Shown: piece after piece, positions 26,774 through 59,303 of the stretch
How positions within the stretch are numbered: the stretch's first letter is position 1
Layout: each line of letters starts with the position of its first letter
From: a virus
IMG/VR virus record: IMGVR_UViG_3300008117_000010
Location: 1 to 64,000 of that record
DNA length: 64,000 nt
Strand: one strand, 5' to 3'
The notes under the pieces: generated by a model
What the model was told of the DNA's origin: nothing
What the model saw: only the letters and a program-made list of their open reading frames with translations
The model's database searches: none
Position numbers and translations under genes: made by a program

Positions 26774-27028
26774 ATGAAAAAAAAATCTATGCCTAAAGCT
26801 CAAGTCGGTAAAGGAATACAAAAAGTCGGCAAAAAGGTTGAGCAAGTAGAAAAAAAAGTTGGTAGTACAGCACGTGGTCTTAAACAAGATTTAAAAAAAG
26901 CTGATGACTATCTTGAAAAAAGATATCCAAATGCAATTGGCAAAAACCCTTACTATCAGGGTGCAAAGAAAGTTGTAAAAACCGCTCTTGGTATGAAAAA
27001 GAAAGGCGGATCTACAAAGAAAAAATAA
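26774..27028 (+). CDS. Small Lys-rich internal protein
   Basis: PKAQVG and MKKKGG motifs shared with the cargo proteins. Confidence 0.65.
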   Translation: MKKKSMPKAQVGKGIQKVGKKVEQVEKKVGSTARGLKQDLKKADDYLEKRYPNAIGKNPYYQGAKKVVKTALGMKKKGGSTKKK

Positions 27029-40744: not shown

Positions 40745-43700
40745 ATGTCAGAAATAAATTCAAATACATCATCATTAGAAGCAAGAACCTTTAGTAAGGG
40801 ACTTGTTAAAGATATAAGCGATCTCTATACTCCAGATGGAGTATGGAGTCATGCAAGAAATTTAAATAATGTTAATGAAGTTAATGGTGATATTGGTACA
40901 GTAAGTAGTGAGCCCGCCAATGAATTTTGTAATCAAGCACCTTATACAATTATAGGTGCTATTAATATATATCAAGATTATTGGGTAATCTATTCTACTG
41001 ATGATGTTAATTCTGAAATAGGTTTATTTGATGAGTCAGCTTGTCAATATTATAAAATTGTTAATGATCCTTGTTTAGGTTTTAATCGTAATAATCTTAT
41101 TATTGGTCGATCAAGAGAAAATTTTGATTGTTCATATCAAGTATATTGGGCAGATGGTTTAAATCCAGATAGAACGTTAAATATTGGTGATATACGTAAT
41201 GCACCATTTGCTCAACCATGGCCTGGTGTACCATACGTATGTGTTGATCAACAAGCTGGATTAAATGAAGAATGTCAAGTATGTGAACCAATATATCCAT
41301 TACAATTAGATTGTGAAAAAATTAGATTAGCTAAACTAACTAAAACACCTTGTGTTAAAGTAGAGTTAGGTTTAGCAGGTGGTAACTTAAGAAATGGTTC
41401 TTACTTTGCTGTAATTGCTTATGCAGAAAATGGATTAAAAGCAACAAACTGGTTTGCACCTGGTAATATCCAATCGATTTTTAATCATAGTGATAATGGC
41501 GGTTCTATTCAAATTCAATTTTCTAATCTAGAAACATCTAATTATGATGAATTTATATTAGCAGTTGTTCGAGTAGTAAACAACCAACTTGAGGCAAAAC
41601 AAATTGGTATTTATAGTACAGATACATCTGTAGTTAATATAGATTATTTAGATCCTGAATTACCTACAATCAATGCGGGTGAGATTTTAATCTTACCAAT
41701 TTATTATGAAAAGTCAAACGGTATATATCAAGTCAATAATTATTTATTACGTGTAGGACCAACAAGTAGATTCGATTTTAATTACCAACCGCTTGCAAAT
41801 CAGATTGATACAGAGTGGGTAATGATTGAACAACCTGTAGATTACTATCGTAAAGGTGGTAATATGACAGGATACATGCGTGACGAACAATATGCTTTTT
41901 TCATAAGATGGGTTTATAATACAGGTGATAAGTCATCATCATATCATATTCCAGGTAGAGGTAAAGAATTAAATAGAGAAATTGATAGTAATGGAAATGA
42001 TATTCTTTATAATGCTGCTAATGGATTTAATGAATCCTCTCCTGATAATTTTGAATTAGCAGCTTCACAAGCAGTTCAAGGTTCATATCAAACACCAGCA
42101 ATATATGATGTTATAAATACAGCATATGTATTATCAAGTAATTTACCTGCAGCAAATGATCCTGTAATACCTGGTAACGTTATTGCTCGTGGTAAAATGG
42201 GTTATTGGGAATCAACAGAAATTTATCCAGATAATAAACCTGAAGTGTGGAATGCAAGTTACTGGCCTTGGTCTCAAACAAGTAGTAGCAATCATGATCT
42301 ATGTGGAAAACCTATTAGACATCATAAATTTCCAGCAGATATTTTAGATACTAGTCCTAATAGTAATGGTGCTAATGGATATTCAAGAGTTCGTATTGGA
42401 ACAACTAGTTGTAACAATAAAGAAAATCCAAAAGCTATAAGAATACTTGGTGTAAGTTTTAAAAATATTAAAGCTCCTGTTGATAATAATGGTGTTCCAA
42501 TTCCAGGTATTGTTGGTTATGAAATATTACGTAGTTCGAGAGAAGGTAACAAAACTGTTATTGCAAAAGGAATAATTAATAATGTTCGACAATATGTAAG
42601 TGCAGACGGACAAAATATTTATTTTCAAAACTATCCTTATAATGATCTTACTCCAGATCCATTTATACAAGGAACTAATAATACGCATAAAGACAAAGTT
42701 ACATTTCACTCTCCAGATACAAACTTTACCGATCCATTTTTAAATCAAAGTGAATTAAAGTTATATGGTGAACTTGGTCAATCAGATAATACATTCATGC
42801 AATTAACTGAAGTACCAGGTCACCCAAAACATAAATTAATTACTAATCTTGCTTTCTTAGTTGCTACCTTTCTTGGATATGCAATTGCTGCAAGAAACTT
42901 AAGAGGTAAAAAAGTTTATCAATTCCAAGGATATCAACCATTTAATATAGGTATTCTTGGAACACCTCCTACTAGTAGTACAACAGAACCAGCTCAAAGT
43001 ATTAATATTACTACAAGAAATACAATATATAATACTGCAAATAATATTACAAATAGTGCACTTGGAGGTAGACTTGAAAATAAAGTTCCCGTATTTTTTG
43101 CATCATTATTTAGTCCATTAGGTACTAACCAAGGTGAGAAAGCAGATGAGACAAATTTAAGTCAGGGTGGATCAGGTATTATGCAAAAAGTTCGTTCATG
43201 GACTAATGAATATTCTGATATAGATTATTTAGGTGGAACATATAGAGCAATAAGTTCTGCAATTACATTTGGTTACTATTTAACTGAAGGTGCAGATTCA
43301 ATGTTAGAACTTATAAAAAGTTTAAGTCCTTATCGTCAATATGCTTATAGATACTTATCAGTTGCACATTTACATAATCATAACTTAGGTAATGCAAAAT
43401 TCTTAAATTCTAATTCACGTAGATATATAACTGGATCAGAGTATTTAGATAGTTCATATCAGAATGTTGAAGGTCTTAGATATAATAATTTATTAAGACC
43501 AAGGACAGTTTCTTTACATTTAAATAGTGCTATACAAGATCCTAGCTTAGTTGATAATACTCGAGTTTTAATATCAAATCAATATAATAATTGGAAAGAT
43601 AGAAGTAAACCCTTTTGTAAAACAGCTAGTTGTTATTATGCAGGAATTAAAATAAGAAATAGAAATCAATATGGACAGTTACAAAATATAAAACAAATAT

Positions 43701-45805
43701 TTACAAACTGTTCTATTAATGTTCCAAATAACTTTGGAGTTAATAATCCTATAGTTCAGTCTCCAGATATATTTGGCGGTGATGTATATGTTACAAGATA
43801 TACTGAAAAGAATACATTCTTTTATTTCTATGATTGGTTATATGATCAACCTGATGGATATGAGTTTGATTATACATTAAGATATATGATTAATGAGCCA
43901 AGATTCTGGGCAAACTTTAATGCATTTGCTACAGAAGATTTTGTTCGAGGAATGATTGGAAGTATTTTATCACTTAATTTTGGTCAAATATTAAATGCTG
44001 CACCAAGTTCATTATATAAACTTGATGATTTTGATGCAATAGATTTTAGTGATTTAGCTAATCTTAATATTGGTAACTTTGTTAATTCATTAGTCAGTAA
44101 ACTAAAGTTTCTAAAGCAAAATGCATTATTCTATTTATTTAATTCAGGAGTTAGAGAATTTTTTGTTGAATCAGAATATAACTTAGATAGTCGTGATTGG
44201 GGTGAGTTAGATCAAGAACGTCATTACGATCCTTATAGATTTAGAGATCTTAATACATTATTTGATACTCCAATAATTAAGTTTGGAAACTTCTATAAAT
44301 ATGATAGGTCATTAAGTGTTGCTTACTTACCATCAAATAAATCACCATGGGGAGTTATTCAACCTAGATCATATGATCCATTAACTGCGGAAACATGCTT
44401 TACAAATTTTCCAGATAGAATTATTTATTCATTACCACAAGATCAAGAAGGTAAAAAAGATTATTGGAAAATCTTCTTAGTTAACAACTATAAAGACTTT
44501 GGAGATGTAGTTACTTCTGTTAAACCAATAAGTAAATCGGGATCAATAATATTATTCCAGTCTCAAGCACCAATAATGTTTATGGGTGTTGATGAATTAG
44601 AAACCACAGGTGGAGTAAAATTAACTATTGGAGATGGAGGATTATTTAGTCAACCATTACAGAATTTAAGTAATGCGGATCCTGCTTATCAACATGGAGC
44701 ATGTCAAAGTAGATTAAGTGTAATTAATACTCCTCTTGGATTATATTACATGAATCAAGCTCAAGGTAAAATATTCCATGTACTATCTTCAGGAATAGAT
44801 GAGATATCAGCTAGATATATGCGGTGGTGGTTTTCAACATACTTACCGTTTAAGATACTAGAAGATTTTCCAAATTTTGAATTAATAGATAATCCTGTTG
44901 TAGGTGTTGGATGTCAATCAATATATGACAATAAAGCAATTATACTTTATTTCTGTAAGAAGGATTATAAGTTAAAACCAGAATTTAAGAATAGAATTAC
45001 ATATATAACTGGTAATGACTTTTTATTAGATAACCTAAATAAAATTAAATTAGGTGATTCTAATTATTTTGACGATGCTTCTTGGACAATAAGTTTTGAT
45101 CCAAAAGAAAAGATGTGGTTATCATTCCACGATTGGCATCCCGAGTTAACATTAATTGCACGTAATAATTTATTAACTACAATTACTGCACCAACCGGTG
45201 GACAAATTTGGAGACATAATGATAGAAATGATTTATTCTGTAACTATTATGGAAAAGATTATCCGTTTGAAATAGAACAAACGTTTTCAACAGGACAAAC
45301 AGTTAATACAATAAGAAGCATTGAATATGTTCTAGAAGGTTATATCTATAATCAAGAAACAGAAGATAAGTATCATGTGCTTGATGCAAATTTTGATAGA
45401 GCAGTCGTTCATAATTCAGAACAAGTATCTGGTGTATTACGTTTAAATCTCACACCTAAAAATAATAGTGTTGATATTATTAACTATCCAGTTATTAATC
45501 CAAGTAACATAGATATATTATATTCAAAAGAAGAACAAAAATATAGATTTAATCAGTTCTGGGATATTACTGCAGATCGTGGTGAGTTTACATTTCCAAA
45601 CGTTCAAAGACCAATTTGGACAACTGCTTATAATGGTTATGTAAGAATATTAAATCCAAATAATTTGAATTATAATAAATCGCCATTTGAAAGAAAGAAG
45701 TTTCGACATTATACAAATCGCATTTTATTATATAAACAGATCTCTGGAAATGTTCAATTGATTTATAAAATTCAAAATACAAAACTTTTATATTCTCCGC
45801 GATGA
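40745..45805 (+). CDS. Tail stabilization/muzzle protein (P22 gp10-like)
   Basis: 1686 aa; FSKGLVKD start, GYMRDEQYAF and WLSFHDWHP motifs of crAss-like muzzle proteins. Confidence 0.8.
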   Translation: MSEINSNTSSLEARTFSKGLVKDISDLYTPDGVWSHARNLNNVNEVNGDIGTVSSEPANEFCNQAPYTIIGAINIYQDYWVIYSTDDVNSEIGLFDESACQYYKIVNDPCLGFNRNNLIIGRSRENFDCSYQVYWADGLNPDRTLNIGDIRNAPFAQPWPGVPYVCVDQQAGLNEECQVCEPIYPLQLDCEKIRLAKLTKTPCVKVELGLAGGNLRNGSYFAVIAYAENGLKATNWFAPGNIQSIFNHSDNGGSIQIQFSNLETSNYDEFILAVVRVVNNQLEAKQIGIYSTDTSVVNIDYLDPELPTINAGEILILPIYYEKSNGIYQVNNYLLRVGPTSRFDFNYQPLANQIDTEWVMIEQPVDYYRKGGNMTGYMRDEQYAFFIRWVYNTGDKSSSYHIPGRGKELNREIDSNGNDILYNAANGFNESSPDNFELAASQAVQGSYQTPAIYDVINTAYVLSSNLPAANDPVIPGNVIARGKMGYWESTEIYPDNKPEVWNASYWPWSQTSSSNHDLCGKPIRHHKFPADILDTSPNSNGANGYSRVRIGTTSCNNKENPKAIRILGVSFKNIKAPVDNNGVPIPGIVGYEILRSSREGNKTVIAKGIINNVRQYVSADGQNIYFQNYPYNDLTPDPFIQGTNNTHKDKVTFHSPDTNFTDPFLNQSELKLYGELGQSDNTFMQLTEVPGHPKHKLITNLAFLVATFLGYAIAARNLRGKKVYQFQGYQPFNIGILGTPPTSSTTEPAQSINITTRNTIYNTANNITNSALGGRLENKVPVFFASLFSPLGTNQGEKADETNLSQGGSGIMQKVRSWTNEYSDIDYLGGTYRAISSAITFGYYLTEGADSMLELIKSLSPYRQYAYRYLSVAHLHNHNLGNAKFLNSNSRRYITGSEYLDSSYQNVEGLRYNNLLRPRTVSLHLNSAIQDPSLVDNTRVLISNQYNNWKDRSKPFCKTASCYYAGIKIRNRNQYGQLQNIKQIFTNCSINVPNNFGVNNPIVQSPDIFGGDVYVTRYTEKNTFFYFYDWLYDQPDGYEFDYTLRYMINEPRFWANFNAFATEDFVRGMIGSILSLNFGQILNAAPSSLYKLDDFDAIDFSDLANLNIGNFVNSLVSKLKFLKQNALFYLFNSGVREFFVESEYNLDSRDWGELDQERHYDPYRFRDLNTLFDTPIIKFGNFYKYDRSLSVAYLPSNKSPWGVIQPRSYDPLTAETCFTNFPDRIIYSLPQDQEGKKDYWKIFLVNNYKDFGDVVTSVKPISKSGSIILFQSQAPIMFMGVDELETTGGVKLTIGDGGLFSQPLQNLSNADPAYQHGACQSRLSVINTPLGLYYMNQAQGKIFHVLSSGIDEISARYMRWWFSTYLPFKILEDFPNFELIDNPVVGVGCQSIYDNKAIILYFCKKDYKLKPEFKNRITYITGNDFLLDNLNKIKLGDSNYFDDASWTISFDPKEKMWLSFHDWHPELTLIARNNLLTTITAPTGGQIWRHNDRNDLFCNYYGKDYPFEIEQTFSTGQTVNTIRSIEYVLEGYIYNQETEDKYHVLDANFDRAVVHNSEQVSGVLRLNLTPKNNSVDIINYPVINPSNIDILYSKEEQKYRFNQFWDITADRGEFTFPNVQRPIWTTAYNGYVRILNPNNLNYNKSPFERKKFRHYTNRILLYKQISGNVQLIYKIQNTKLLYSPR

Positions 45806-48800
45806 AAAAGTATATAGGCAAATTTAAAAAGGAAGGATTACCCGGTGGACCTAATGAAGTGCAAACAACTATGCATGGATTTATATTTACTGAAGATGGT
45901 CAATATGATTTTCCAGGAATGAAAACAGTAGTACCTGGAGATACTATGACAATGGAAAATGTACTGCATAATCTATTAGGTATTAGTGATAATGGTATTA
46001 TGCAATTCATGGAACGTGATGGTGGAGAATATTATTTTCCTGGTGCAAACATGGTATATGAAATACCTCTTGCACAATTTGGTTTATCATATGGATTAGA
46101 AGGGACAGAAGATATGAATGGAAGTCTTGTTCCCTCATTAAACTTTGATACTAACGGTCTAAGTCTTAATGCTTCATCAAGTTTACCTATAGAAAGTTTA
46201 AAAGATTATTATAAAAATTTAAGTGTTAATGCAGCCTATAGAAAAAATTTAGGAAGACTAGGAAATTTAGAACTAACAGGTAGTGGTTATTATAATAAAG
46301 GTAGTAAACCAGATTATAATGTTGGTTTTAATTATAATAACAGATTTAAAGATCGATTAGGTGTAAATGTTTCTGCTAATTCTCCATTACAAAATATTAA
46401 AGATAATACTAATGTAAATGTTGGTTTAACTTATAATTTTCAAGATGGTGGAATTAGAGGACCAAGAATAGTTAATGACCCTGAATCAGATAGATCATAC
46501 TATGATCCAATTTCAGAAACAATAACTATGAGTGCTTTACCATTTGGTGTAGATCCAAAATATGTTAAGGAGCATGAAATGTTTCACCATCTGCAAAACA
46601 TGACGGGTAACTTACATTATGGTACACCTGTAAAAAGAGCTACTATTCCATCAACCGATGAATTTGCGGCAGACTATTATAACAGAAAAGGATTAGAAGT
46701 AGGAGATCTTACTGATGAATTTAGATATTATAATCCTGAATTTGGTTTTGTACCAGATGATGTTATATATAACACGTATATTGACTACGAACAATATAAT
46801 AGACCGTATACTGTAGAGGGTGAAGCTCAAGATTATGAAAACTATATACGTTCTGGTGGCAACTCTATATTTAGAAAAAATGGTGGATCATTAGATAAGT
46901 ATCAATTTGGTAGACAATATAAAAAATTCAAAGAAAGCTTACCAGAAAACTTAAGAAATACAAATGAAAAAGATTATAATTTAAAGTATTTATGGAAAAA
47001 AGCTGGTAGACCTAGTGATATATTTGAAGCACAACAATGGGATAGAAATAAATCATTTGAAGAAAATTATAATCAAGATATAGCAAACTTAAAAGCTGGA
47101 ACATATGATTATACAAAAGGTCTTTTTCCTTTAGTAGAGGATGTAGAACAAGACGGTAGTATTAGTTATAATTATCATGGTTCAAGTATTGAACCAACAA
47201 CATTAAAGTTTTTAAAATCAAAAGATCATCCATCTTTAATAAAGGAATTAGAGTGGTATTATTCTAATGACCCAACTGCTGTTGATTTTAGAAATCAATA
47301 TGATTTAGATAAAAGTGGTAAATTTTATCAGTATATACCAAAAAAACAAAATATAAAAAAGAAAGGTGGTACAACTCTAAAAAAATATCAAACCGGAAAA
47401 ACAGTTTCACAAGAGTGGACTGAAATTACAGGAACACCTTGGGCACAAGCCAAAAAACTTGGACTAACTAAAGGAAGTGAAAAAGAAAATCTTAAACTTT
47501 TAAATGAAATTAAAAAAGATCCTGAAAAATATAGAACACTTGCAAGAGGTAATTCTAATTTGCAACCAATAGAAAGGATAGAAGTTCAACCAGAAGCTAT
47601 AATAACAGAAGATGTAAAACCTGTTACTACAGCTAAAAGTGTAACACAACCATTTGATCAAACATATAGAGAGTTATACGGAGAAGAAAAACAAGCACCA
47701 CAAGATGTAATGAGGGTACCTTTAATAGATGCTCCAAAATATACTATAACAAATCCTGATTTATTAAGTGTTCCTTTTGTATATGAAACGGGAGTTCAAC
47801 CAGACTATTCATATGAAGATAGAGCATTTGGTGAATCTGAGTGGAATAAACTTGCGGCTGTTGCATTACCTTCTCCAACTGGAGAATTTGCTCAAGAAAT
47901 GTTTAATCCATTAAGTCAAGAAGCGATAGGAGAATATATTCCTATGGTACAATCAACGCAATTAACAACTCCAGGACCAAATGCATATAAACCAGATTTA
48001 TCTAATTGTGATCAAGAGCAATGTTCTGCAGGATTACAATATAACCTAGCATCACAATTAAAAGGTGGTTTTAACGAAGCTCATAATAAATTAGGACTTC
48101 AAGGTAATGCTTGGACAATGGGTGAAAATATTATAAAACATGGTGGACAAAGAATATATGGTCTTGGTTCTGAAATGAATATAAATAGAAGTAAAAATTA
48201 TGATACTAAAGATATAAGGAAAAAATTATATGAGGCAAGAAAATCATATGACTTAGATAAAATATACGAAACCTCACAGGTAGGTGATATTGTTGAAATG
48301 TATTATCCCGGTAGTGACTATCAAACCGAAGCAATACGTGATGGTAAAGATAATACTGTTACAACACATATAGGACATATTACTGAGAAAGATGGCGTTA
48401 AATATGTTACACATAATGTCCATGGTACATGGCATACAGATAAATTAGAAACATTATTATCTAGATCAGGAAATAATAAAGGTACAAAAGGAACAGTAAT
48501 TTCAGGTATTGTAAGACCAGATTATGGTTGGAGAGATAAGCAAGATGAAAATAGAGCTGTATCTATATCTCCAAATCCTGTACAAGCAATATCTGCTAGT
48601 GGTGATAGAAACTATTATCAATTTGGACCTGCTGATACAGATAATGATGGTAAAGAAGATGTAGTATCTAGATGGCAAAACAAAGCTATTAATCCGACAT
48701 CTCAACAATTTGTTAAAGGAATAGAAGCTGTAGCACCAACTATTGCTAAAGACTTTGGATTATCAAATGATCAACTTGAATTAGTAATGAGAACATCATT

Positions 48801-50022
48801 TGGTGCATTAGGTAAAGAAAGTTCATTCGGTGTAGGAGAAGGATATCTTAAAAAAGCTCGAGCAAGAAAACCTTTAAGAGAATATAAAAAGACTGCTCCA
48901 GATTGGTTTCTTGAAGGTGATCCATTAAGTGAGGGTCTTTCCCAAATAAAATATGATGAGATTTTTAAAGATCCAAAAACAAAATCTCTTCTAAATAAAT
49001 ATGGAATTAAATCAGAAGATCAATTATATGATCCAATGTATGCATCTATTGCAACTATGATATTAGGAGCAATGAATTATAAACAATTTGAATTAGCAAC
49101 AGGATTAAAAGCAGAAGATGTTGATCCAATAACATTACAAAATATAATGTTACTTGGTCATAATAAAGGAATGCAAAATGTAATAAATAAAGATTTTACA
49201 AATGAAGGTGAATTAAAAACTTTTAGTTTCTTAAATAGAAAAGGTAATAAATATAAAGAGGGTAAGGAACCAACAATATCAGATGCATCAATTATAAGAG
49301 GACTCGAAACGTACTCCAATGCGCATATGAATCGAAAATCATATACTAATGAAGGTGGAGATTTTGCAGCCTCTTTAAATATTGATATGGATAAATTAAT
49401 GGGTCCAAGCAATAATGAAAACTTAGTTGAATATACTCAACAAGAACTTCCTGAAGAATATGGTCTTGGTGAAGCTCTTCTTGCTGGTGCATATGATAAA
49501 GCTTCAGGTAGAGATTATCAAAAAGATAGAGATAAAATAAATGCTGAAATTGAAGCAGCTAAATTAAAAGCAATAAAAAATGCAGAAAAATTATATAAGG
49601 GAAGTAAAAGAAAATTAAGACAAGCCGTAAATAAAATTGAAAAAGAAGCTGCAATAGCCAAATCAACAATTTTAAATCAAGCAAGAAAAGTTAAAAGAAA
49701 AGTATCTTCTTTTGAAGAGGGTGGACAAATTGATAAAATATATATAGGTAAATATACAATGACACCAAAGATGGAAGATGGTGGTGGATTGAAGAGATGG
49801 TTTGCAGAAGAATGGACAGATATTAAAACAGGTAAAGAATGTGGTAGATCTGGAAAAGAAAAAGGTTCACGTCCATATCCTGCTTGTAGACCAAAAAATA
49901 GAATAACTTCTGAAACTCCTAAAACAGTAAGTGAATTATCTTCTGCTGAAAAAGCTAAATTTAAAAAAGCAAAAAGAGGAAAAGAAAGAATAAAATACAA
50001 TCATCAAAGGAAAAATAAATAA
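45802..50022 (+). CDS. Mosaic virion cargo protein (beta-barrel-like, HExxH zincin, CHAP/NlpC-like and lysozyme-like modules)
   Basis: HEMFH; CSAG...GNAW...VGDIV...THIG; KESSFG...GLSQIK...HNKG; modules separated by xxGG motifs. Confidence 0.7.
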   Translation: MKKYIGKFKKEGLPGGPNEVQTTMHGFIFTEDGQYDFPGMKTVVPGDTMTMENVLHNLLGISDNGIMQFMERDGGEYYFPGANMVYEIPLAQFGLSYGLEGTEDMNGSLVPSLNFDTNGLSLNASSSLPIESLKDYYKNLSVNAAYRKNLGRLGNLELTGSGYYNKGSKPDYNVGFNYNNRFKDRLGVNVSANSPLQNIKDNTNVNVGLTYNFQDGGIRGPRIVNDPESDRSYYDPISETITMSALPFGVDPKYVKEHEMFHHLQNMTGNLHYGTPVKRATIPSTDEFAADYYNRKGLEVGDLTDEFRYYNPEFGFVPDDVIYNTYIDYEQYNRPYTVEGEAQDYENYIRSGGNSIFRKNGGSLDKYQFGRQYKKFKESLPENLRNTNEKDYNLKYLWKKAGRPSDIFEAQQWDRNKSFEENYNQDIANLKAGTYDYTKGLFPLVEDVEQDGSISYNYHGSSIEPTTLKFLKSKDHPSLIKELEWYYSNDPTAVDFRNQYDLDKSGKFYQYIPKKQNIKKKGGTTLKKYQTGKTVSQEWTEITGTPWAQAKKLGLTKGSEKENLKLLNEIKKDPEKYRTLARGNSNLQPIERIEVQPEAIITEDVKPVTTAKSVTQPFDQTYRELYGEEKQAPQDVMRVPLIDAPKYTITNPDLLSVPFVYETGVQPDYSYEDRAFGESEWNKLAAVALPSPTGEFAQEMFNPLSQEAIGEYIPMVQSTQLTTPGPNAYKPDLSNCDQEQCSAGLQYNLASQLKGGFNEAHNKLGLQGNAWTMGENIIKHGGQRIYGLGSEMNINRSKNYDTKDIRKKLYEARKSYDLDKIYETSQVGDIVEMYYPGSDYQTEAIRDGKDNTVTTHIGHITEKDGVKYVTHNVHGTWHTDKLETLLSRSGNNKGTKGTVISGIVRPDYGWRDKQDENRAVSISPNPVQAISASGDRNYYQFGPADTDNDGKEDVVSRWQNKAINPTSQQFVKGIEAVAPTIAKDFGLSNDQLELVMRTSFGALGKESSFGVGEGYLKKARARKPLREYKKTAPDWFLEGDPLSEGLSQIKYDEIFKDPKTKSLLNKYGIKSEDQLYDPMYASIATMILGAMNYKQFELATGLKAEDVDPITLQNIMLLGHNKGMQNVINKDFTNEGELKTFSFLNRKGNKYKEGKEPTISDASIIRGLETYSNAHMNRKSYTNEGGDFAASLNIDMDKLMGPSNNENLVEYTQQELPEEYGLGEALLAGAYDKASGRDYQKDRDKINAEIEAAKLKAIKNAEKLYKGSKRKLRQAVNKIEKEAAIAKSTILNQARKVKRKVSSFEEGGQIDKIYIGKYTMTPKMEDGGGLKRWFAEEWTDIKTGKECGRSGKEKGSRPYPACRPKNRITSETPKTVSELSSAEKAKFKKAKRGKERIKYNHQRKNK

Positions 50023-50064
50023 TATTTATTATCTTGTAATATAATTCTAACTATAAATATAACT

Positions 50065-50433
50065 ATGGCAACTTTAAACGCAACCTTGGTATTAACTAGC
50101 ACCACAACTTCATCCGCTAGTTTAAATTTAAATGTATCAAAAGTACTTACTGTAGATGTTGATCTTGTAAATACTGGACGCATTTCTTGTCCAACAGTTA
50201 CGAATACAACTTTGATTCCTAATACTGTAACAGACAATAAATATGTTTATTTAAAAAATCTTGACCCTGTTAATTTTATTACTGTTAAAGATGATGACCC
50301 TATAGCAATTGGTGACTTTATGGAATTAAAAGCTGGGGAGTTTGCATTCTTTGTAGTAAAAGGTGGCATAGGATTAAACATTGAATCTGATACAGCTCCA
50401 TGTATCGTAGAGTATGGTTTTTGGAATGAATAA
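50065..50433 (+). CDS. Small beta-rich structural protein
   Basis: YVYLKN...LKAGEFAFF...VEYG. Confidence 0.65.
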   Translation: MATLNATLVLTSTTTSSASLNLNVSKVLTVDVDLVNTGRISCPTVTNTTLIPNTVTDNKYVYLKNLDPVNFITVKDDDPIAIGDFMELKAGEFAFFVVKGGIGLNIESDTAPCIVEYGFWNE

Positions 50434-50435
50434 TT

Positions 50436-53246
50436 ATGGCAAATGAACCAATAAATAAAGCTCTTTATAATAGAGTTAAAAGTGAAGCCAAACGAAAATT
50501 CGATAGATGGCCAAGTGCTTATGGCTCTGCGTGGCTAGTAAAAGAATATAAAAGACGCGGTGGCAAGTATAAGCAAGATGGTGGTGGTATGTCACAAGAC
50601 GCACTTAAATCAATGCAATCTTTCTATGAAGATTTTCAATCAAATAAATTTGATGCTGATGCATTTAAAAAGACTACAAATAATCTGTATGATTTAGGTT
50701 TAAAAAATGAAGGTACTAAAACCAGTTATTTAAAAAGTGTAAAAGGTCCTGGTCTTTTTGGAACAGGATTGTTTGGTAAAAACTATTATAAGAGACCTGG
50801 TCTTTTTTCTAAGGATACATACTATACAGATGTAAATGTTCAAAAAGGTTTAGATCAAAAAGGTAATCCTTATTATGTTCCTTTCGATGAATATAATAAT
50901 GAAAATCTTATTGAACCTATAAATGATTTACCTGAATTTCCAGAAATGGCACAAGGTGGCGGTATACCTGAAAGGTATCGTAATATGGGCTTTAATAAAG
51001 TTGGTGCTAAAAAACAATCCAATCGTCCAGGTAAAAAATGGATGGTACTCGCAAAGAAAGGTGATAAATATAAAGTTGTTCATGGTGGCTATAAAGGAAT
51101 GAAAGATTTTACTCAACATGGTAATCCTAAAAGACGTGAACGTTTTTGGGATAGAATGGGTGGTCGTGATTCCGCAAAAGCAAAGGATCCATTTTCACCA
51201 TTGTACTGGCACAAACGCTTTGGTACTTGGCAAGAAGGTGGTCAATATAATTATGATATAAATAATCCAATACCCCAATTTGAAATGGGAAATTCAATAT
51301 TATCTAAAATGCAAAATGAAGCTATGAGAAAAGGATATCTCAAACAAGGTGGAACTCCATGCTATGAATGTGGTGGTTCTTATGCTAAAGGTGGAACAAA
51401 TAATCCAGGTTTTAAAGCACTACCGCCTTACGTTCAACAAAAGATTAAATCAAATATGCAAACAGGAGGAATGACTCCTTTTAATGCAAATCCAGATTAT
51501 TATAATGAGCGTCTACGCAACTTTATTGATTTGGTTAATGGCACCGCTAGTGATAGTCTTTTCTCTGAAATGGAACAAGAAGGTATGATGCCACAAGCAC
51601 GTTACGGAATGTCATATCTTCCATTAGCACAAAACGGTAAAGAACAAAAAGTACCCTACGTTTATTACAAAGGTAAACTAATGCCCTATGATGAAGCTGA
51701 TAGAATGTTACCACAGTTTAACCGCTTTCCGAAAGGAACTAAAATATATAATGAATATGGTGATGAAATTGGAACTATAAGAGATTATGGTCAAACTGTA
51801 AAAGGTGGTAAACCAAAGTTTGAATTTAAAGCTGCTGATCCAAATCTTACTCAAGAAAAATTAGAAGAGTTTGCAAACTTATATGGACAAGAAGCGTTAG
51901 CTAACGCAATGGCTGAAGGATTAATAGACGAGTACACACCTGTTTCACGTTTTATAGATCAGACAATGGGAAGAGGAGTTACAGCGGCAACTAATCCTTT
52001 TGCTGAAGCATCTACAATAAATTATAATAACATTGCTGATGATAACATATTAACAGATCCAGATATAAAACGTGCATATGCAGATAATAAAGCTGCAAAT
52101 AATCAAAATAATAGTAGAACTGGTAGCGGTACAGGTAGTAATACTGGAAGTGGTGCAGCAACAAGTACAGGAGCAAGTGGTGCACGTGCAACTGTTAAAC
52201 AACAATTTGAAGAAATCAATGGTCCTGGTTCTTGGCAAAGAGCAAAAGATGCAGGATTAACAGATGGAAGTGCAGAAGCTAATTTAGCTCTTCTTGAACG
52301 CGCACAAAATAATGAAGATGTTTTCGCAGATGTAGATGAAATAGAAGAAACAACTGTTCCAGAAACAACTGATGAAACAGTAGAAGGAGAAGTAGAAACA
52401 AAAGCAGAAGGAGAAGCAGAAACTACACCAGGTACAAGTGGTACAACAGATCAAATTGGATTACAACAAGCACCCGAATTTGCTAATATTAGCTCCTGGA
52501 CAAATTTTGGAAATGAACCAGTAATGTATTCAGATCCAGAAACTGGAATGGTAATGAATGTTCCACAAGAAATGCTTAATCAAGGTGCTGGTCAAATGTA
52601 TGGTCAACAGTTTCCTGTTTATCTTAAGAAATTTCGTCAAGGACCTTTTGGTACTGTTGCTAAATTTAGACCATATCCAACAGCAGGTGGTTCAGGTAAT
52701 CTATTTGATAGAATAGCTAATGTATTTAGCCCTAATCAAGCAGGACCTCAAGTACCACCAAATATAATGGAAGGAGATGAAGATATAATATCTCAATTAC
52801 AAGAGCAAAAATTATTACGTCCAAGAGATGTTCGTAAAATGCGTCGTCAAGAATCAAGAGAAATGCGTAGAGATCAACGTGGAAATTTAAGAGAGATGCG
52901 TAATGCTGCAAATGATATTATCAAAGGTAGTAATATGCAAAAAAGAGGAGAGATGTTTGATGCCAGAATGGATATGCGTGATGAGCGTTTTAATGATAGA
53001 ATGGATAGAAGAGCAAATAGAATTAATGAAAGATTTGATAGAAGAATAGAAAGAAATCAAGATCAACTTGAACGATTCCAGGATAGAATGCAAAGAAAAG
53101 AAGAAAGAAGAAATAGAAAAGCAGAATATGGTGGTATGTCTAATCCATATCTTTATATGTATAAAGAAGGCGGTGAATATTATATGGATGAAAATACTAT
53201 TAATATGATACTTGCAATGGGTGGTAATATTGAATTTATAGATTAA
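50436..53246 (+). CDS. Mosaic virion cargo protein
   Basis: Many xxGG/PxAxxG motifs; basic, acidic and R/D/M-rich low-complexity segments. Confidence 0.65.
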   Translation: MANEPINKALYNRVKSEAKRKFDRWPSAYGSAWLVKEYKRRGGKYKQDGGGMSQDALKSMQSFYEDFQSNKFDADAFKKTTNNLYDLGLKNEGTKTSYLKSVKGPGLFGTGLFGKNYYKRPGLFSKDTYYTDVNVQKGLDQKGNPYYVPFDEYNNENLIEPINDLPEFPEMAQGGGIPERYRNMGFNKVGAKKQSNRPGKKWMVLAKKGDKYKVVHGGYKGMKDFTQHGNPKRRERFWDRMGGRDSAKAKDPFSPLYWHKRFGTWQEGGQYNYDINNPIPQFEMGNSILSKMQNEAMRKGYLKQGGTPCYECGGSYAKGGTNNPGFKALPPYVQQKIKSNMQTGGMTPFNANPDYYNERLRNFIDLVNGTASDSLFSEMEQEGMMPQARYGMSYLPLAQNGKEQKVPYVYYKGKLMPYDEADRMLPQFNRFPKGTKIYNEYGDEIGTIRDYGQTVKGGKPKFEFKAADPNLTQEKLEEFANLYGQEALANAMAEGLIDEYTPVSRFIDQTMGRGVTAATNPFAEASTINYNNIADDNILTDPDIKRAYADNKAANNQNNSRTGSGTGSNTGSGAATSTGASGARATVKQQFEEINGPGSWQRAKDAGLTDGSAEANLALLERAQNNEDVFADVDEIEETTVPETTDETVEGEVETKAEGEAETTPGTSGTTDQIGLQQAPEFANISSWTNFGNEPVMYSDPETGMVMNVPQEMLNQGAGQMYGQQFPVYLKKFRQGPFGTVAKFRPYPTAGGSGNLFDRIANVFSPNQAGPQVPPNIMEGDEDIISQLQEQKLLRPRDVRKMRRQESREMRRDQRGNLREMRNAANDIIKGSNMQKRGEMFDARMDMRDERFNDRMDRRANRINERFDRRIERNQDQLERFQDRMQRKEERRNRKAEYGGMSNPYLYMYKEGGEYYMDENTINMILAMGGNIEFID

Positions 53247-53250
53247 ACTA

Positions 53251-56073
53251 ATGAGAAAAGTAAGAATAAAAAAACTAGCATATGGGGGCAATACTATTGC
53301 CCCTCCATATATGCCAGATCAATATAGCGTACCCGAAACTAAATTTAATAATACATTAACTAAGGTACCAATACCTGAAGCAAATATAGAAGCTGAAGGT
53401 GGTGAAACTGCATTGTTGCCTGATGTTGGTGGAACTAGTGCATTATATAATATTCGTGGACCTCGACACAGCGAAGGTGGTGTAGCTTTAAATGTACCTG
53501 AAAATTCATTTATATATAGCGACACTGCTAAAATGAAAATTAAAAACGAGGAGATATTAAAAATGTTTGGATACTCTGATGGTGAAATTAAAAAGATTAG
53601 AAAATCAAAAGGAATTACACCAGCAGAAATTTCTAAGAAATATCAAATAAATAAATTTCGCGAAGTATTACAAGATCCTAATAGTAATAAAAGAGAAAGA
53701 AAAACTGCAGAGTTAAATATTAAAAATGCTAATATTAAATTAGCTATTCTTGCTCTTTATCAAGAATCAATGAAAGGTTTCCCTGATGGTATTCCTATTG
53801 TTGCTTTACCATTTATTGCTAAATTCGGAATAGATCCTTCAAGCTTTTTACCTGTTACACCAGAATCCATAAATCAAGCTCAACCTAATCAACCAATGAT
53901 GGAAGAAGAGGAGAATGAGGAAATGGAAAACTATGAAGAAGGTGAAGAAGAAGAATATGAAGAGGAGGGAATGGAAGAAGAATATAATGAAGAATATGAG
54001 GAGGGTGAAGGAATGCCAATGGCAGAAGATGGAATGGCTAATGCAGGTAATCTTTTAGATTTTTTAGCTAACTTTGATCCAACTGTAACACAACAAGAAC
54101 CTGATATTACTATACCCGATGCTAATTTTAATGTTAAATTAAAAGAAATAGGTAAGTATGATGCAGATATGATGTTAGCTGGTTTAGATCTAGCAAATAA
54201 TTTAGCACGACTACCAGAAGAAAAAAGAAGAGAGGAAGCATTTAGAAAAAAAACAGGAGCAGATGAATTATATGCGGATGCTGAAGGAAGTCAAGGATCA
54301 TATGATGTTAATACAGGAGAATTTATACCTACTACAGAAGAACAAACACCTGTACAATTTACAGGTGATGCAACATACGGTAAATATGGTGGAGGTTTAA
54401 GAAAGTTTGTTTATCAAGATGGAGGAGAATTTGACCCAGAACTAGGAGTTTATATGACATACCAAAACGGTAGAGAAGTTTATATGGATGCTAATGATGT
54501 ACCTGCACCTGCGGGTTGGAGTCCTGATGATTATAATAGAATTCTTGAAGATGAATATGAAATGCCTCAAGCTCGATATGGAATGCAAATAGCACAAAAT
54601 GGTGCAGAAAAAAAAGGAATGTATAATCGAGTAGAAGAAACTTTTAAAGGGAATGAAAAACTAAAACAACTATTGTATGAAAAAACTTTAGCTGCTTTAA
54701 AAAATGAATCATATATAAATAAAAATGCCCTTAAAAGAAAAGGAGTAGATATAGATAAAGCAATTAAAGAACTTACTCCCGAAAAAGCACTTGAAGCATT
54801 TTTAGCAATGCAGAAAAGAAACTATGGGGTAGTAGAAAATAAAGGAGCTGAATGGATACGTTCACAATCACAATCAAATAGTAAAGCATTTGATGATGCA
54901 TATGGTGAATTAGAACTTGGTTCTGCTGATCCATTAAATGTAGCACTTGGTCAAGCTTCTTATTTAGGATATCGTGACTTGTTAGAAGATCGTGATGCAG
55001 GAAAACTTGAAGAAGATGTTAATGCTGATCTTGCTCCTTTTATTGTAAGACAAGTAGGTAAACAAGATGAAAAATATGGATTTGATCCAGAACAAGATAT
55101 AAGTAAAATTGATGCAATTGGTACTAATACTACTGTAGGACAGTTAGCAGGGATTAAACAAGATGAGGATGTAGAAGAGACACCTGAAGCAACAACACCA
55201 AAAACTCCTGCTCCAGAATTAATGCCTCAAACTTTAGGTGAAGCAGCAGCTGCACCACCATCAGTAGGACCATATCCACAAGATGTTCTTAGCATGGGTG
55301 AAGCATTTGCTAATCGTATGGGATTGCGAAGAACTTTTCCATGGGCTCCTAAAATTGAACCTGTATTACCTCAAGCAACATTCTTTGATCCACGTAGAGC
55401 AGAAGCTAATACAATGGCAGCATATAATACTGCACTTAATGAATTAGGTGCATATGCAACACCACAGTTTTTAAGTTCACGTGCAGGTTCCGTTGCAGCA
55501 AATGCAATGAACTCTGCTGCAGATATCATTAGTCAAGTACAAAATAATAATGTACAAATAGCAAATTCATTTGAAACTCAAAAAGCTAGTATATTAAATA
55601 ATGCTAACTTAACAAATGCAGCACAAGCAAAACAATTGTATGATGACACAACAATGTTAAATCAACAATATGAAAATGCTAAAAGAGATACAAGAAATAA
55701 ACTTTTGAGTACTATTAAAAATAGTATAACCAATATGGCTACTACGGATGTAATAAACCAAATATATGGTGATAGGTTTATGATTGATCCGACAATAGGC
55801 GGTGGATTAAGATTTTATAATCCACCTGAATCTATTTCTCCTGCTGCTCAAACACAAAGCATGGGTGAACAATTTGCTCAATTTGCAAAACAGTTTGAGG
55901 GACTTGATATTGAAGATAAAACTTTATTAGAATTGTTTCTTAAGGGACAAACTGGTACAGCTTCTACAAATAAAGAAGTTGATGCTCTGGCAGCAATGAG
56001 TTCAATACCACAAGCAGCATACGGAGGTAGTAGAAAACTTAGAAAAGTTAGAATAAAAAAAGCACCTAGATAA
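53251..56073 (+). CDS. Virion cargo/ejection protein
   Basis: NIEAEGGE...GPRHSEGGV...IYSD N-terminal domain, poly-Glu tract, N/A/Q-rich helical C-terminus. Confidence 0.65.
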   Translation: MRKVRIKKLAYGGNTIAPPYMPDQYSVPETKFNNTLTKVPIPEANIEAEGGETALLPDVGGTSALYNIRGPRHSEGGVALNVPENSFIYSDTAKMKIKNEEILKMFGYSDGEIKKIRKSKGITPAEISKKYQINKFREVLQDPNSNKRERKTAELNIKNANIKLAILALYQESMKGFPDGIPIVALPFIAKFGIDPSSFLPVTPESINQAQPNQPMMEEEENEEMENYEEGEEEEYEEEGMEEEYNEEYEEGEGMPMAEDGMANAGNLLDFLANFDPTVTQQEPDITIPDANFNVKLKEIGKYDADMMLAGLDLANNLARLPEEKRREEAFRKKTGADELYADAEGSQGSYDVNTGEFIPTTEEQTPVQFTGDATYGKYGGGLRKFVYQDGGEFDPELGVYMTYQNGREVYMDANDVPAPAGWSPDDYNRILEDEYEMPQARYGMQIAQNGAEKKGMYNRVEETFKGNEKLKQLLYEKTLAALKNESYINKNALKRKGVDIDKAIKELTPEKALEAFLAMQKRNYGVVENKGAEWIRSQSQSNSKAFDDAYGELELGSADPLNVALGQASYLGYRDLLEDRDAGKLEEDVNADLAPFIVRQVGKQDEKYGFDPEQDISKIDAIGTNTTVGQLAGIKQDEDVEETPEATTPKTPAPELMPQTLGEAAAAPPSVGPYPQDVLSMGEAFANRMGLRRTFPWAPKIEPVLPQATFFDPRRAEANTMAAYNTALNELGAYATPQFLSSRAGSVAANAMNSAADIISQVQNNNVQIANSFETQKASILNNANLTNAAQAKQLYDDTTMLNQQYENAKRDTRNKLLSTIKNSITNMATTDVINQIYGDRFMIDPTIGGGLRFYNPPESISPAAQTQSMGEQFAQFAKQFEGLDIEDKTLLELFLKGQTGTASTNKEVDALAAMSSIPQAAYGGSRKLRKVRIKKAPR

Positions 56074-56087
56074 ATCTAGATTAAATT

Positions 56088-59000
56088 ATGGCAACTTATA
56101 TACAAGGAGTAACAGATTATATTCCTGAAATTCAACCGTTTCAACCTGACTATAATATTTTAGCACAGGCGCTTAGTACAAAAGAAGCGCAATATCAAGC
56201 AGGCTATGATAAAATAAGTGGAATATACGGTACACTTTTGAATTCAAATATGACGCACTCAGAGAATATTGAGAGGCGTAATAAATACTTTACTCAAATA
56301 GAAAATGAAATTCAAAAGATTGCAGGTCTAGATCTTAGTAGACAAGATAATGTTATAAGTGCTCAACAAGTTTTTAAACCATTAATAAATGATAAGTACA
56401 TTCATAAGGATATGTCCTTTACTAAATCATTTGAAGATAGTTTATTAGCTTCTGAAAATTATAAAAGATGTGTTGGAGAAAATTGTGGTGGTCAATGGTG
56501 GGAAACTGGAGATTTAGAATTAGCATATAAAAGGGAAGAGTTTGCAAATGCATCACTTGACCAAACCTTAGGTATGCAAAATTTAAATTACACTCCATTT
56601 CAGAATGCTTACAAAATGGGGATGGATTTTGCAAAAGAAATGAATTTTGAATCACAATCAGTAGAAATAACACCTGATGGTAGATATCAAATAACGAGGA
56701 CAAATGGTCAACAAATGGTTCCCGATCTATCTCAATATATGATGGCAACTGTAGGTAATGATCCTAAAGTAGCTGATACATATAAAACACAAGCATATGT
56801 AGATAGAAAAAATTATATAAAAGCAAATGCACAACAATACGGTAGTGAAGAAGCTGCTGAGCGTCAATACTTTACAGAAGTATTTACTGCAGTTGAAGAA
56901 TCAAATGCACGACGCCAAGCAGAATTAGAAAAACAAAATCAACAAATTGATAATAAGAAAAAACTTGTTGAAGAAAATAAAAAGACAGGAATTAATCCTG
57001 CATATGATACAGATCCAGAAGCTTTATTATTAGGTCTTGATACTCAAAAAGAAGTTGTTAGTATAAATAAAAAACAAGCAGATGATATAGCTGATTTATC
57101 AAATCCAAGTATTGTTCCAAATCTTCCAATAGATGTACTAAGAAGTAGAGTTGATGCTATTACTGCAAGTAATTCATTACAAGAAACTTTGATTACTGCA
57201 GCATCTAACTATGCTAACCTCACTCAAAAGGTTGAAATAAAAGCCGATGAGTATGGTAAAATGCAAGTACAGCATCAATATAATATGGCTGAAATTGCAT
57301 ATAAAGCACAGCTTGATGCAGAAAAAGAAAAAAAGGAAAGTGAAACAATGGCAGATGCTTTAGGCATTACTGATGGTGTTATTGTTCCTGGAGATGTGGG
57401 TCAAACAGATCCCAATTATAATGTTCAGGAAGAAATGATTAAAAGAGAAGAATCATTGCGTGGAGATGGAACTGCTAAAACTGAACATTTAAGCCAAGTA
57501 GTAGTAAGTCAATTACAATCAGTTGCTAATGATCCAAATGCAAGTCCAGAAAGAAGACAAGAAGCAAGAAGATTATTAGAAGATACATATGGTGTATTAG
57601 AAACCTCAACTACATATAAAGAAAAAACTTATTTAGATGAGTTTGTTGAGGAAATGAAACAAGATTGGGAATCTGATGATGAGTTTACATGGTATAATCC
57701 ACTAGATTTATTTGATATTGCTAAACAAGCTGCTGATGCCAGTTGGGATTATATGTTTGATGATGAAAAAAAGGAATCAGTAAAAGTTGAAAAAGAAGGA
57801 TACTTAAGAAAAGATGCAAGTGGTAATTTATCACTTGTAAAAGATTGGCAAAATAAAGCTAAAACACCTTTCATAAATGATATGAAAAGTGCTAATAATG
57901 TTTTAGAACTTCAGGGAAGAATTAAGAATTTAATAACAAGTGAAGATTTTAAACAAGTAATTAAAGGTCGTGAAGATGTTATTTTACCCGATCTTTATCA
58001 AGCTTATAATGATATACAAGGAACGGAAGCAGAATTACTTGCAGTGCAACAAGCACATTTAAATAATAATAAAGCTGTTTTAAGTTATATTCAATCAACA
58101 CCAACAGATGAATATGATCCATTTATAATGGAAGCACGCGAACAGTTTTTAGATGATAAAGGAAACATAAGATCATTAGAAGAATTTGCACAAGCAGTAA
58201 TGCCTGTTGTTGCTAATCATCCAGATAGAGAAGTATGGGATTGGTCTAGTGCAGCAAAAGGTGCTATGACTGCTAATCTAATACCAATTGTTGGACCAGT
58301 AGCAGGAGTAGTAAGTGGATATAGATCTGGAAAAGTTCCAATGGGTGAATTAGATCAAGAAGATATGATGGATGAAATCGAATCTATATATGATGAATTT
58401 AAAGAAGACTTTAGTGATGCATATGCAAACAAAGATATTCCAGGTATTACAACAGAGTTTAGTCCGTTAGGTGGACACACTGGAGCATTTTCACAAGGTG
58501 TAAGTTATCAAGTTGATTCAATGCTTGGTGGTATGGCTCCATCAAATAGAGCAGCTGGTGAATTATTATCAGCAATAAATCAAAGTGGTGCATTAGCTAA
58601 TCCTAAAGCAGCTGAAGCAACATGGATAATGGGAGATGGTTCTATGATTACTCCAGATGTAATTGATGATCAATATAGTGAAGATAAAGAAAATGCTATT
58701 AGAGCAATGATGCAACAAATGAGCATGGATTTTTTAAGTAGTAATCCAAAAAATACCACAGACGGTAGACCAAGATTTAAAATAACTAGTTATGGTACCG
58801 GAGCTCAAAATCGTAATAATGTTGCAATAACCTTTACACCGTCTCAAGCATATTTAAAAGGATTAATAGGTTCAGAAAATTTACCTGGGGTATATAGATC
58901 TGCCTTTGGTAAAAATATGGATCAAGCTACATTCACATTAATTATACCACGTGAAAAATTAGCCCAACATACTGGTTCTGATGGTAGACCTCGTGAAACA

Positions 59001-59303
59001 GCTATTATTTCTAGACATACTAATACGCGTGTTGAAAGAGTATTTAACTTAACAAATCAATATAACATTGATTATGGTAATTTAGGTGGTAGTTCTTCTA
59101 TAAGAAGAGATTCAAATGGTAATGTTTTCTTATATCAAACATCTGCAGAATATGATCCACAAACAGGAAGAATAATAAATACTCCGTTAGCACCTGTTTA
59201 TTTAAAAGATTTTGATATTAATCAAACTGTGGAAACGTTAAATCAAACCCATAAAGAAATCTTACAAGACAATAGTATTAACATAAAAAGAGATAGAAGA
59301 TAA
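56088..59303 (+). CDS. Virion cargo/ejection protein
   Basis: 1071 aa helical protein; hydrophobic LIPIVGPVAGVV segment; cargo-cluster position. Confidence 0.6.
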   Translation: MATYIQGVTDYIPEIQPFQPDYNILAQALSTKEAQYQAGYDKISGIYGTLLNSNMTHSENIERRNKYFTQIENEIQKIAGLDLSRQDNVISAQQVFKPLINDKYIHKDMSFTKSFEDSLLASENYKRCVGENCGGQWWETGDLELAYKREEFANASLDQTLGMQNLNYTPFQNAYKMGMDFAKEMNFESQSVEITPDGRYQITRTNGQQMVPDLSQYMMATVGNDPKVADTYKTQAYVDRKNYIKANAQQYGSEEAAERQYFTEVFTAVEESNARRQAELEKQNQQIDNKKKLVEENKKTGINPAYDTDPEALLLGLDTQKEVVSINKKQADDIADLSNPSIVPNLPIDVLRSRVDAITASNSLQETLITAASNYANLTQKVEIKADEYGKMQVQHQYNMAEIAYKAQLDAEKEKKESETMADALGITDGVIVPGDVGQTDPNYNVQEEMIKREESLRGDGTAKTEHLSQVVVSQLQSVANDPNASPERRQEARRLLEDTYGVLETSTTYKEKTYLDEFVEEMKQDWESDDEFTWYNPLDLFDIAKQAADASWDYMFDDEKKESVKVEKEGYLRKDASGNLSLVKDWQNKAKTPFINDMKSANNVLELQGRIKNLITSEDFKQVIKGREDVILPDLYQAYNDIQGTEAELLAVQQAHLNNNKAVLSYIQSTPTDEYDPFIMEAREQFLDDKGNIRSLEEFAQAVMPVVANHPDREVWDWSSAAKGAMTANLIPIVGPVAGVVSGYRSGKVPMGELDQEDMMDEIESIYDEFKEDFSDAYANKDIPGITTEFSPLGGHTGAFSQGVSYQVDSMLGGMAPSNRAAGELLSAINQSGALANPKAAEATWIMGDGSMITPDVIDDQYSEDKENAIRAMMQQMSMDFLSSNPKNTTDGRPRFKITSYGTGAQNRNNVAITFTPSQAYLKGLIGSENLPGVYRSAFGKNMDQATFTLIIPREKLAQHTGSDGRPRETAIISRHTNTRVERVFNLTNQYNIDYGNLGGSSSIRRDSNGNVFLYQTSAEYDPQTGRIINTPLAPVYLKDFDINQTVETLNQTHKEILQDNSINIKRDRR

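Follow-up and report, generated by a model that had tools for sequence, protein, structure and literature searches.

A probable cargo locus and its genes

This study concerns a recurrent Gly-Gly (GG) motif in the products of three adjacent open reading frames (ORFs), P0001, P0002 and P0003, of the virus record IMGVR_UViG_3300008117_000010 (IMG/VR). The stretch analyzed (the window) comprises positions 1 to 64,000, i.e., the first 64 kb of the complete 110.5 kb record, which has direct terminal repeats. As judged from its genes, the source is a crAss-like phage, if a distant one. Phage families were matched by the genes for terminase, portal and capsid, and the portal protein, which shared 35% identity with the portal of Leptolyngbya phage Lbo-JY46, also matched crAss-like phage portals. 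The Pfam families CrAss_Ring_1 and CrAss_Ring_2 were both matched in the genome, outside the 1686-amino-acid (aa) ORF that occupies the position of the muzzle gene. The order downstream of the ring genes was as follows, with three giant ORFs (3239, 4181 and 1892 aa) after the last entry.

40745..45805, plus strand: 1686-aa ORF at the position of the crAss001 muzzle gene
45802..50022, plus strand: cargo ORF 1 (P0001, 1406 aa)
50065..50433, plus strand: 122-aa ORF separating cargo ORFs 1 and 2, without the joint motif
50436..53246, plus strand: cargo ORF 2 (P0002, 936 aa), the motif-richest protein
53251..56073, plus strand: cargo ORF 3 (P0003, 940 aa)
56088..59303, plus strand: 1071-aa ORF downstream of the cargo genes, with conserved synteny in relatives

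The cargo proteins of crAss001, gp45 and gp46 (also termed C1 and C2), are encoded downstream of the muzzle gene and ahead of the genes for the giant RNA-polymerase proteins (Bayfield et al. 2023, PMC10172136). Because P0001, P0002 and P0003 share this genome position, we labeled them cargo; by synteny alone, they are probably cargo proteins and probably injected into the host. The order of ring genes, muzzle homologue, P0001, P0002, P0003 and 1071-aa ORF was conserved in related loci, which we collected from 80 related viral contigs comprising 890 ORFs. The muzzle homologue was represented by 67 ORFs in these loci, always upstream of the cargo genes. A locus search with P0003 as query returned no related loci.

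A Gly-Gly motif in the putative cargo proteins

The original prediction had described the three cargo proteins as strings of modules separated by short motifs with a hydrophobic residue ahead of two glycines, and had listed examples. After checking of translations and coordinates, every listed string was found in the three ORFs. Together they contained 39 GG pairs (25.0 ± 4.4 in shuffled sequences) and 13 matches to [FYWML]xxGG (5.0 ± 2.3 in shuffles), a modest excess that stemmed mostly from P0002. Head and tail proteins, the muzzle homologue (10 GG pairs versus 7.2 ± 2.5), the 1071-aa protein (no [FYWML]xxGG), the three giant proteins and the products of non-structural genes were all at shuffle expectation. 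The motif, described in the original prediction as not evident in capsid or tail proteins, is also carried by an 84-aa basic ORF of the head module (26774-27028; see below). A stricter pattern, composed after the data had been seen, gave 11 matches in the three cargo ORFs and none in about 95 other ORFs.

GG sites were also scored with a weight matrix trained solely on outside homologues of P0002. Mean scores were +4.4 for P0002, which is itself related to the training set, –2.2 for P0001 (p = 0.004 versus other proteins) and –3.8 for P0003 (p = 0.10), compared to –6.3 for other proteins. Because this signal was uneven across the ORFs, items such as RKNGG and LAYGG did not individually rise above chance. 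Furthermore, since the linkers are rich in glycine, much of the raw GG count is explained by composition: in the low-confidence parts of the structural model of P0002, where glycine makes up 13.7% of residues, shuffling gave 7.8 ± 2.4 GG pairs versus 11 seen, and the corresponding values for P0003 were 2.8 ± 1.5 and 5. Some GG pairs inside folded parts (HGG, RMGG, EAEGG, HSEGG, TIGGG) were ordinary turns. The motifs of the three ORFs, including single-glycine variants, were located as follows.

P0001, plus strand: best-scoring joints by weight matrix, ERDGG 46012-46026, FQDGG 46438-46452, FEEGG 49711-49725, MEDGG 49771-49785
P0001, 46063..46083, plus strand: single-G variant IPLAQFG, with the P-x-A-x-x-G signature seen at the N-terminus of the P0003 family
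P0002, plus strand: joint cluster at edges of confident AlphaFold segments, KQDGG 50571-50585, MAQGG 50946-50960, WQEGG 51228-51242, LKQGG 51339-51353, YAKGG 51381-51395, MQTGG 51456-51470
P0002, 51588..51638, plus strand: double single-G motif MPQARYG and LPLAQNG
P0002, 53121..53225, plus strand: C-terminal joints AEYGG, YKEGG and LAMGG
P0003, plus strand: mirrored termini with the same basic tag, opening with MRKVRIKKLAYGG (53251-53289) and closing with AAYGG and a basic tail (56014-56070)
P0003, plus strand: linker motifs between confident modules, all at a predicted local distance difference test (pLDDT) value below 50, MPMAEDG 54013-54033, GKYGG 54379-54393, YQDGG 54412-54426, MPQARYG 54562-54582, IAQNG 54589-54603

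We then examined the motif across homologues of P0002 (n = 584) and P0003 (n = 265). Among 607 unique GG sites in the P0002 family, one of the residues F, Y, W or M occupied position –3 in 67%, position –1 in 30% and position –2 in 8% of cases, against a background of 17%. The excess of M, Y and W at –3 was 4-5-fold, with a depletion at –2. In an alignment of eight homologues with 40-60% identity, the GG pairs and the string MPQARYGM were invariant while the surrounding linker varied. Motif density in the 80 related contigs was 11.3 per 1000 aa in P0002-like proteins, 3.6 in P0001-like and 2.9 in P0003-like proteins, 1.5 in the muzzle homologue and 0.7 in the 1071-aa family; it was close to zero in three families of small conserved ORFs that directly precede the muzzle gene and presumably encode tail proteins. 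From these sequences, the motif would be best written as [M/Y/W/F]-x-[x/M/Y]-G-G, with P-x-A-x-x-G as its single-glycine relative.

Indels and module exchange at the joints

As a check, the original prediction had suggested asking whether the motifs are the breakpoints of module swaps in relatives, and the outcome was positive. Alignment of 120 P0002 homologues yielded 137 clustered indels of at least 6 aa. GG was found at both ends in 22 of them (null expectation 0.83 ± 0.9, with a maximum of 5 in 500 trials) and at one end in 56 (null 8.8 ± 2.8). Recent events gave the same picture. Between cargo genes of at least 88% nucleotide identity we identified 13 non-redundant indels, ranging from 30 to 1252 nt; in 9 of the 13, GG lay within 4 aa of both junctions, for which the chance is about 1% each (binomial probability 8e-16), and in 12 it lay at one junction. 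Recent junctions without GG mostly carried the single-glycine form AQxG. Microhomology at recent junctions extended up to 30 nt, because the sequences of joint plus header are repeated.

Modules between the clustered joints of P0002 (50571..51470) were inserted, deleted or permuted among relatives. In 39 unique relatives, the cassette corresponding to the C-terminal half of DUF5872, which forms the end of P0001, began right after GG and was preceded by unrelated sequence. These indels and exchanges support the view of the proteins as chains of interchangeable modules. As judged by these sequence comparisons, the joint doubles as a recombination site at which modules are exchanged.

Module edges in predicted structures

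AlphaFold models of P0002 and P0003 were built with family alignments. Both showed confident modules with low-confidence stretches between them, and 16 of the 18 listed motifs were placed in or at segments of pLDDT below 50 (9/11 in P0002 and 7/7 in P0003). Together with the coincidence of GG and indel junctions in relatives, this confirmed the earlier claim that the motifs fall at module boundaries. In P0002, the helices at residues 28-40, 331-343, 796-897 and 919-927 end one to two residues ahead of GG. AEYGG follows the long helix 796-897, and a conserved C-terminal mini-domain starts past YKEGG. Fold searches with both whole multi-domain models (Foldseek, VIA) returned generic long-helix matches alone, and PDB sequence searches with P0001, P0003 and a P0002 profile gave nothing useful.

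Search for a processing peptidase

One of the roles inferred in the original prediction, that of a site for a maturation protease, did not find support. A check for a cysteine protease elsewhere in the genome had been proposed, and Pfam searches of the complete 110.5 kb genome (E ≤ 1) with Peptidase_C5 (adenain) and Peptidase_C48 (Ulp1) gave no match; models of the Vaccinia I7 type and of the African swine fever virus (ASFV) type were not searched separately. Searches of the complete genome for C39 (PF03412) and for the HK97-type peptidase S78 were likewise negative. In a Pfam scan of 88 other ORFs, the sole peptidase-like gene was one with a DUF2201_N putative metallopeptidase and a VWA-like domain, located in the replication arm outside the window.

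Genome positions 96707-97897, minus strand: DUF2201_N plus VWA-like ORF (L088), assigned by Pfam

Within P0001, a module with an HExxH sequence (residues 217-365) gave a weak atlas lead to SprT-like/M78 proteins (score 0.85) and no Pfam match, and a Cys/His module gave a weak atlas lead to CHAP/NlpC-P60. Both modules were absent from all 80 related loci, which retain the motif, and therefore do not represent a conserved processing enzyme. Moreover, the co-packaged giant proteins contained 8 [FYWML]xxGG matches versus 5.2 expected and hence show no avoidance of the motif. If every site were cut, conserved peptides of 6-8 residues would be set free, and only 3 of the 890 ORFs in related loci end at GG.

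Comparison with crAss001 and other known systems

The same grammar was recognized in crAss001 gp45, the sole protein of that phage enriched in the GG motif. Its basic N-terminal tag is followed by FDTGG, its C-terminus consists of GG and a basic tail, and SAYGG, FAEGG, KAFGG, NAFGG, INEGG and FAYGG occur internally. In the electron cryo-microscopy structure, residues 425-552 of gp45 were resolved in clear density as one portal-bound domain (PMC10172136). This stretch opens with AFGG and passes through TQGG and NEGG; by analogy, such continuity through three GG motifs argues against obligate cutting. Parts of gp45 are found in the tail barrel and in the capsid, about 420 Å apart, and the authors proposed that connecting residues bridge the two, as well as that the cargo partly unfolds on ejection; neither motif nor cleavage is mentioned (PMC10172136). 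There are differences as well: crAss001 has two cargo proteins, while three motif-bearing ORFs and the 1071-aa ORF are present here. Homology of P0002 and P0003 to gp45 was not significant in BLASTP and hhalign comparisons, in which gp46 was not included, and gp45 did not appear among the Foldseek and VIA results for the whole multi-domain models of P0002 and P0003. Some local likenesses of gp45 (L006:11988-14516) to P0002 mini-modules were noted, none of them statistically significant: SFQALP followed by AEGGG, AYCGG, and FAYGG-DTNP compared to YAKGG-TNNP.

We also re-matched the published matrix-assisted laser desorption/ionization (MALDI) gel-band lists of crAss001 (Shkoporov 2018). Bands 1-9 recovered gp44, gp47/50, gp49, gp20, gp22, gp25, gp26 and gp23; gp45 never rose above decoy in the bands of 70 to >300 kDa, the small bands 11-13 not being covered.

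The polyvalent proteins of phages and conjugative elements (Iyer, Burroughs, Anand, de Souza, Aravind 2017, PMC5512222) are similar in being large, probably packaged and injected, and composed of numerous exchangeable domains that are unrelated to one another, among them modules resembling cell-wall hydrolases and zincins, with processing into units proposed. Their trait of several unrelated domains per polypeptide among late or virion genes is present here. Self-processing by zincins was proposed without a defined site, and that paper, in which the words 'linker' and 'glycine' are absent, defines no joint or cleavage motif (PMC5512222). In contrast to the polyvalent proteins, the joints are standardized here, and many modules, at 6-40 aa, are very small and lack an assigned function.

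Two further systems invite comparison at the level of the motif. The adenovirus protease (adenain) cuts (M/I/L)xGG-x, and pS273R of ASFV cuts GG-x. In both, as here, a hydrophobic residue precedes Gly-Gly in proteins that end up inside the capsid, and small basic core proteins are flanked by sites, resembling the small basic head-module protein described below. Unlike in adenain sites, the hydrophobic residue is one position farther from GG here, and no C5/C48 (clan CE) protease was matched in the genome. Double-glycine leader peptides are cut after a conserved GG by C39 peptidase domains of ATP-binding cassette (ABC) transporters. Leaders of this type occur once, at the N-terminus, and follow a consensus of their own, whereas the sites described here are internal and repeated, and no C39 match was obtained.

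Further features of the cargo genes and the head module

P0001 comprises an outer-membrane-protein (OMP)-like beta module, the HExxH module, a CHAP/NlpC-like and a transglycosylase-like module and, at its C-terminus, the C-terminal half of DUF5872 (Pfam match at residues 1277-1395). Atlas leads in this protein were limited to residues 217-365 and 690-900, and Pfam searches of six sub-segments of P0001 gave no match. The OMP-like module (46084-46452) ends with GLTYNF directly before QDGG, resembling a beta-barrel C-terminal signal; sequence homologous to this region was present in 23 of the 80 related loci. P0002 starts with the N-terminal half of DUF5872 and DUF5754, followed by mini-modules that each close with GG; some of its relatives carry YkuD. 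Its low-confidence region at window positions 50740-50810 contains GLFG-type repeats (GPGLFGTGLFG...PGLFS) that recall cohesive FG repeats. A helical mini-module consisting of W-x-x-A-K-x-x-G-L-T-x-G-S and a helix is common to ORF 1 (47430-47530) and ORF 2 (52190-52300), and represents the most confident AlphaFold segment of P0002 (residues 585-625, pLDDT about 95).

The Pfam domain DUF5872 is split between two genes, with its C-half ending ORF 1 (49771-50022), its N-half opening ORF 2 (50436-50580) and the 122-aa ORF between them. Both breaks fall at GG, and the C-half cassette was found in 42 of the 80 related loci. Possibly, the two halves associate in trans and thereby connect ORF 1 with ORF 2. 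By consensus, proteins of the P0003 family start with a basic run and then LPKAQxG, and finish with YGGG and then a basic tail. Some relatives' gene calls for P0003 begin at MAYGG, without the basic tag.

The head module contributes one further motif-bearing gene.

26774..27028, plus strand: P0244, 84-aa very basic ORF flanked by a scaffold-like 401-aa ORF and the major capsid gene, with MPKAQVG (26789-26809) near the N-terminus and MKKKGG (26993-27010) followed by a basic tail

A basic run precedes MPKAQVG at the N-terminus of P0244, and its few relatives (8 matches in a library clustered at 50%) retain both end motifs. Possibly, P0244 binds DNA as an internal head protein and employs these joints as well.

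At the DNA level, the first glycine codon of the GG pairs in 45802-56073 was GGT in 28 of 35 cases, compared to 56% across all glycine codons. A Chi-like GGTGG signal acting as a separate mechanism was considered and dropped, avoidance of GGAGG being a simpler account of the GGT bias.

Proposed role of the joint

The motif recurs at module edges and coincides there with indel junctions. We tentatively prefer, at somewhat less than an even chance, the reading that it is a standard module end and hinge, doubling as a recombination joint, in the 'beads on a string' ejection proteins of a crAss-like phage clade from the environment. A joint closes each small module, often capping a helix or ending a short extended stretch, and the two glycines would then hinge into a flexible linker. 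The modules would fold, pack and unfold independently, so that the chain could occupy both capsid and tail barrel and pass through portal and tail module by module. The distribution of gp45 between tail barrel and capsid in crAss001 offers a precedent for such threading. While the role in hinging and threading is one that we infer, the evolutionary consequence is shown by the junctions in relatives: because every module carries the same joint, recombination from joint to joint inserts, removes or reorders modules while leaving folds intact, with microhomology of up to 30 nt at recent junctions, and the cargo repertoire is therefore highly exchangeable. Several points weigh against this reading. 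The overall confidence of the AlphaFold models was low (mean pLDDT 60 and 63 for P0002 and P0003, respectively). A helix precedes four of the nine GG motifs of P0002 and no more, so that helix capping is not the whole story. A plain hinge needs neither two invariant glycines nor a hydrophobic residue in fixed register, which suggests that something reads the motif, and the short basic tags flanking GG at protein termini resemble signals or propeptides.

Reading by a factor could take two forms. We consider it possible, but rather doubtful, that [M/Y/W/F]-x-x-G-G is a code of this kind, recognized either by a protease of an unrecognized family that cuts the cargo or by a site in the portal or tail barrel that loads or orders the modules. 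In the former case, a phage or host protease would cut behind the Gly-Gly pair, either within the capsid or once the cargo has been injected, and free the modules as separate effectors in the manner of adenovirus and ASFV. The strict GG with an upstream hydrophobic residue in accessible, low-confidence linkers would suit such an enzyme, as would the propeptide-like basic tags beside GG at the N- and C-termini of P0003, P0244 and gp45, the zincin self-processing proposed for polyvalent proteins together with the HExxH module of ORF 1 (itself a weak atlas lead), and, as a weak hint given that bands 11-13 were not covered, the failure of gp45 to rise above decoy in gel bands in which the portal, with the same 12 copies in the crAss001 structure, was found. 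The genome, however, gave no match to C5, C48, C39 or S78 and only DUF2201_N among 88 other ORFs, the peptidase-like modules of ORF 1 were missing from all 80 motif-keeping related loci, the density of gp45 runs through AFGG, TQGG and NEGG, the giant proteins do not avoid the motif, complete cleavage would leave very short conserved peptides, and ORFs hardly ever end at GG; cutting is thus unlikely. In the latter case, the motif would form a short extended strand and tight turn that binds the portal wing, the ring or muzzle proteins or the scaffold, thereby fixing each module in the capsid or tail barrel and determining the sequence in which modules leave. The hydrophobic residues, favored at –3 and –1 and depleted at –2, form an i, i+2 pattern typical of strand-type binding, and the portal-bound segment of gp45, which opens with the three GG motifs, interdigitates with portal wing loops, another gp45 segment binding ring proteins (PMC10172136). 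The basic tag plus LPKAQxG, as a fixed N-terminal signature of the P0003 family, and the presence of the motif on P0244 point in the same direction. Against docking, motif counts differ greatly from protein to protein, reaching about 11 per 1000 aa, and are difficult to reconcile with a fixed set of binding sites; moreover, neither homology searches of P0002 and P0003 nor fold searches with their whole multi-domain models detected gp45; we give docking little credence.

Finally, the motif might have no specific function, its GG pairs arising from glycine-rich disordered linkers in which indels are found simply because linkers tolerate them. The shuffles of low-confidence parts agree with this to some extent, and the signal of P0003 alone was not significant. 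Nevertheless, GG columns are invariant at 40-60% identity while adjacent linker residues vary, M, Y and W are in excess at –3 and depleted at –2, and junctions strike GG itself, beyond merely the linker. Lack of function is already disfavored by these family data, and we regard it as quite improbable. Beyond serving as module end and hinge, as in the preferred reading, the joint may also dock at the portal, rings or muzzle or be cut at some of its sites, given the strict GG with its i, i+2 hydrophobic residues and the basic end tags. The idea of a capsid-targeting tag, which was part of the original prediction, is kept alive by the basic tags that appear beside GG at both ends of P0003, in its family and in gp45.

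Implications

Full-text literature searches returned no description of the motif. The present analysis adds the junction statistics and microhomology, the finding of no conserved peptidase beside the motif, its lack of avoidance in co-packaged proteins, and the density range of gp45 read against its sequence. The crAss-like phages, which rank among the most abundant viruses known, store and inject protein amounting to several megadaltons. A standard joint at every module edge accounts for the fast turnover of the cargo repertoire and offers a simple rule for dividing unannotated proteins into units for work on structure and function. The joints also mark precise sites for distinguishing between threading of the cargo as a single chain, piecewise docking and cutting. 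Should a protease or a loading site indeed read the joint, it could serve to load foreign proteins into phage particles, and should the motif be a code read by a factor, tailed phages would possess a general, portable 'plug-in' system for injected effectors.

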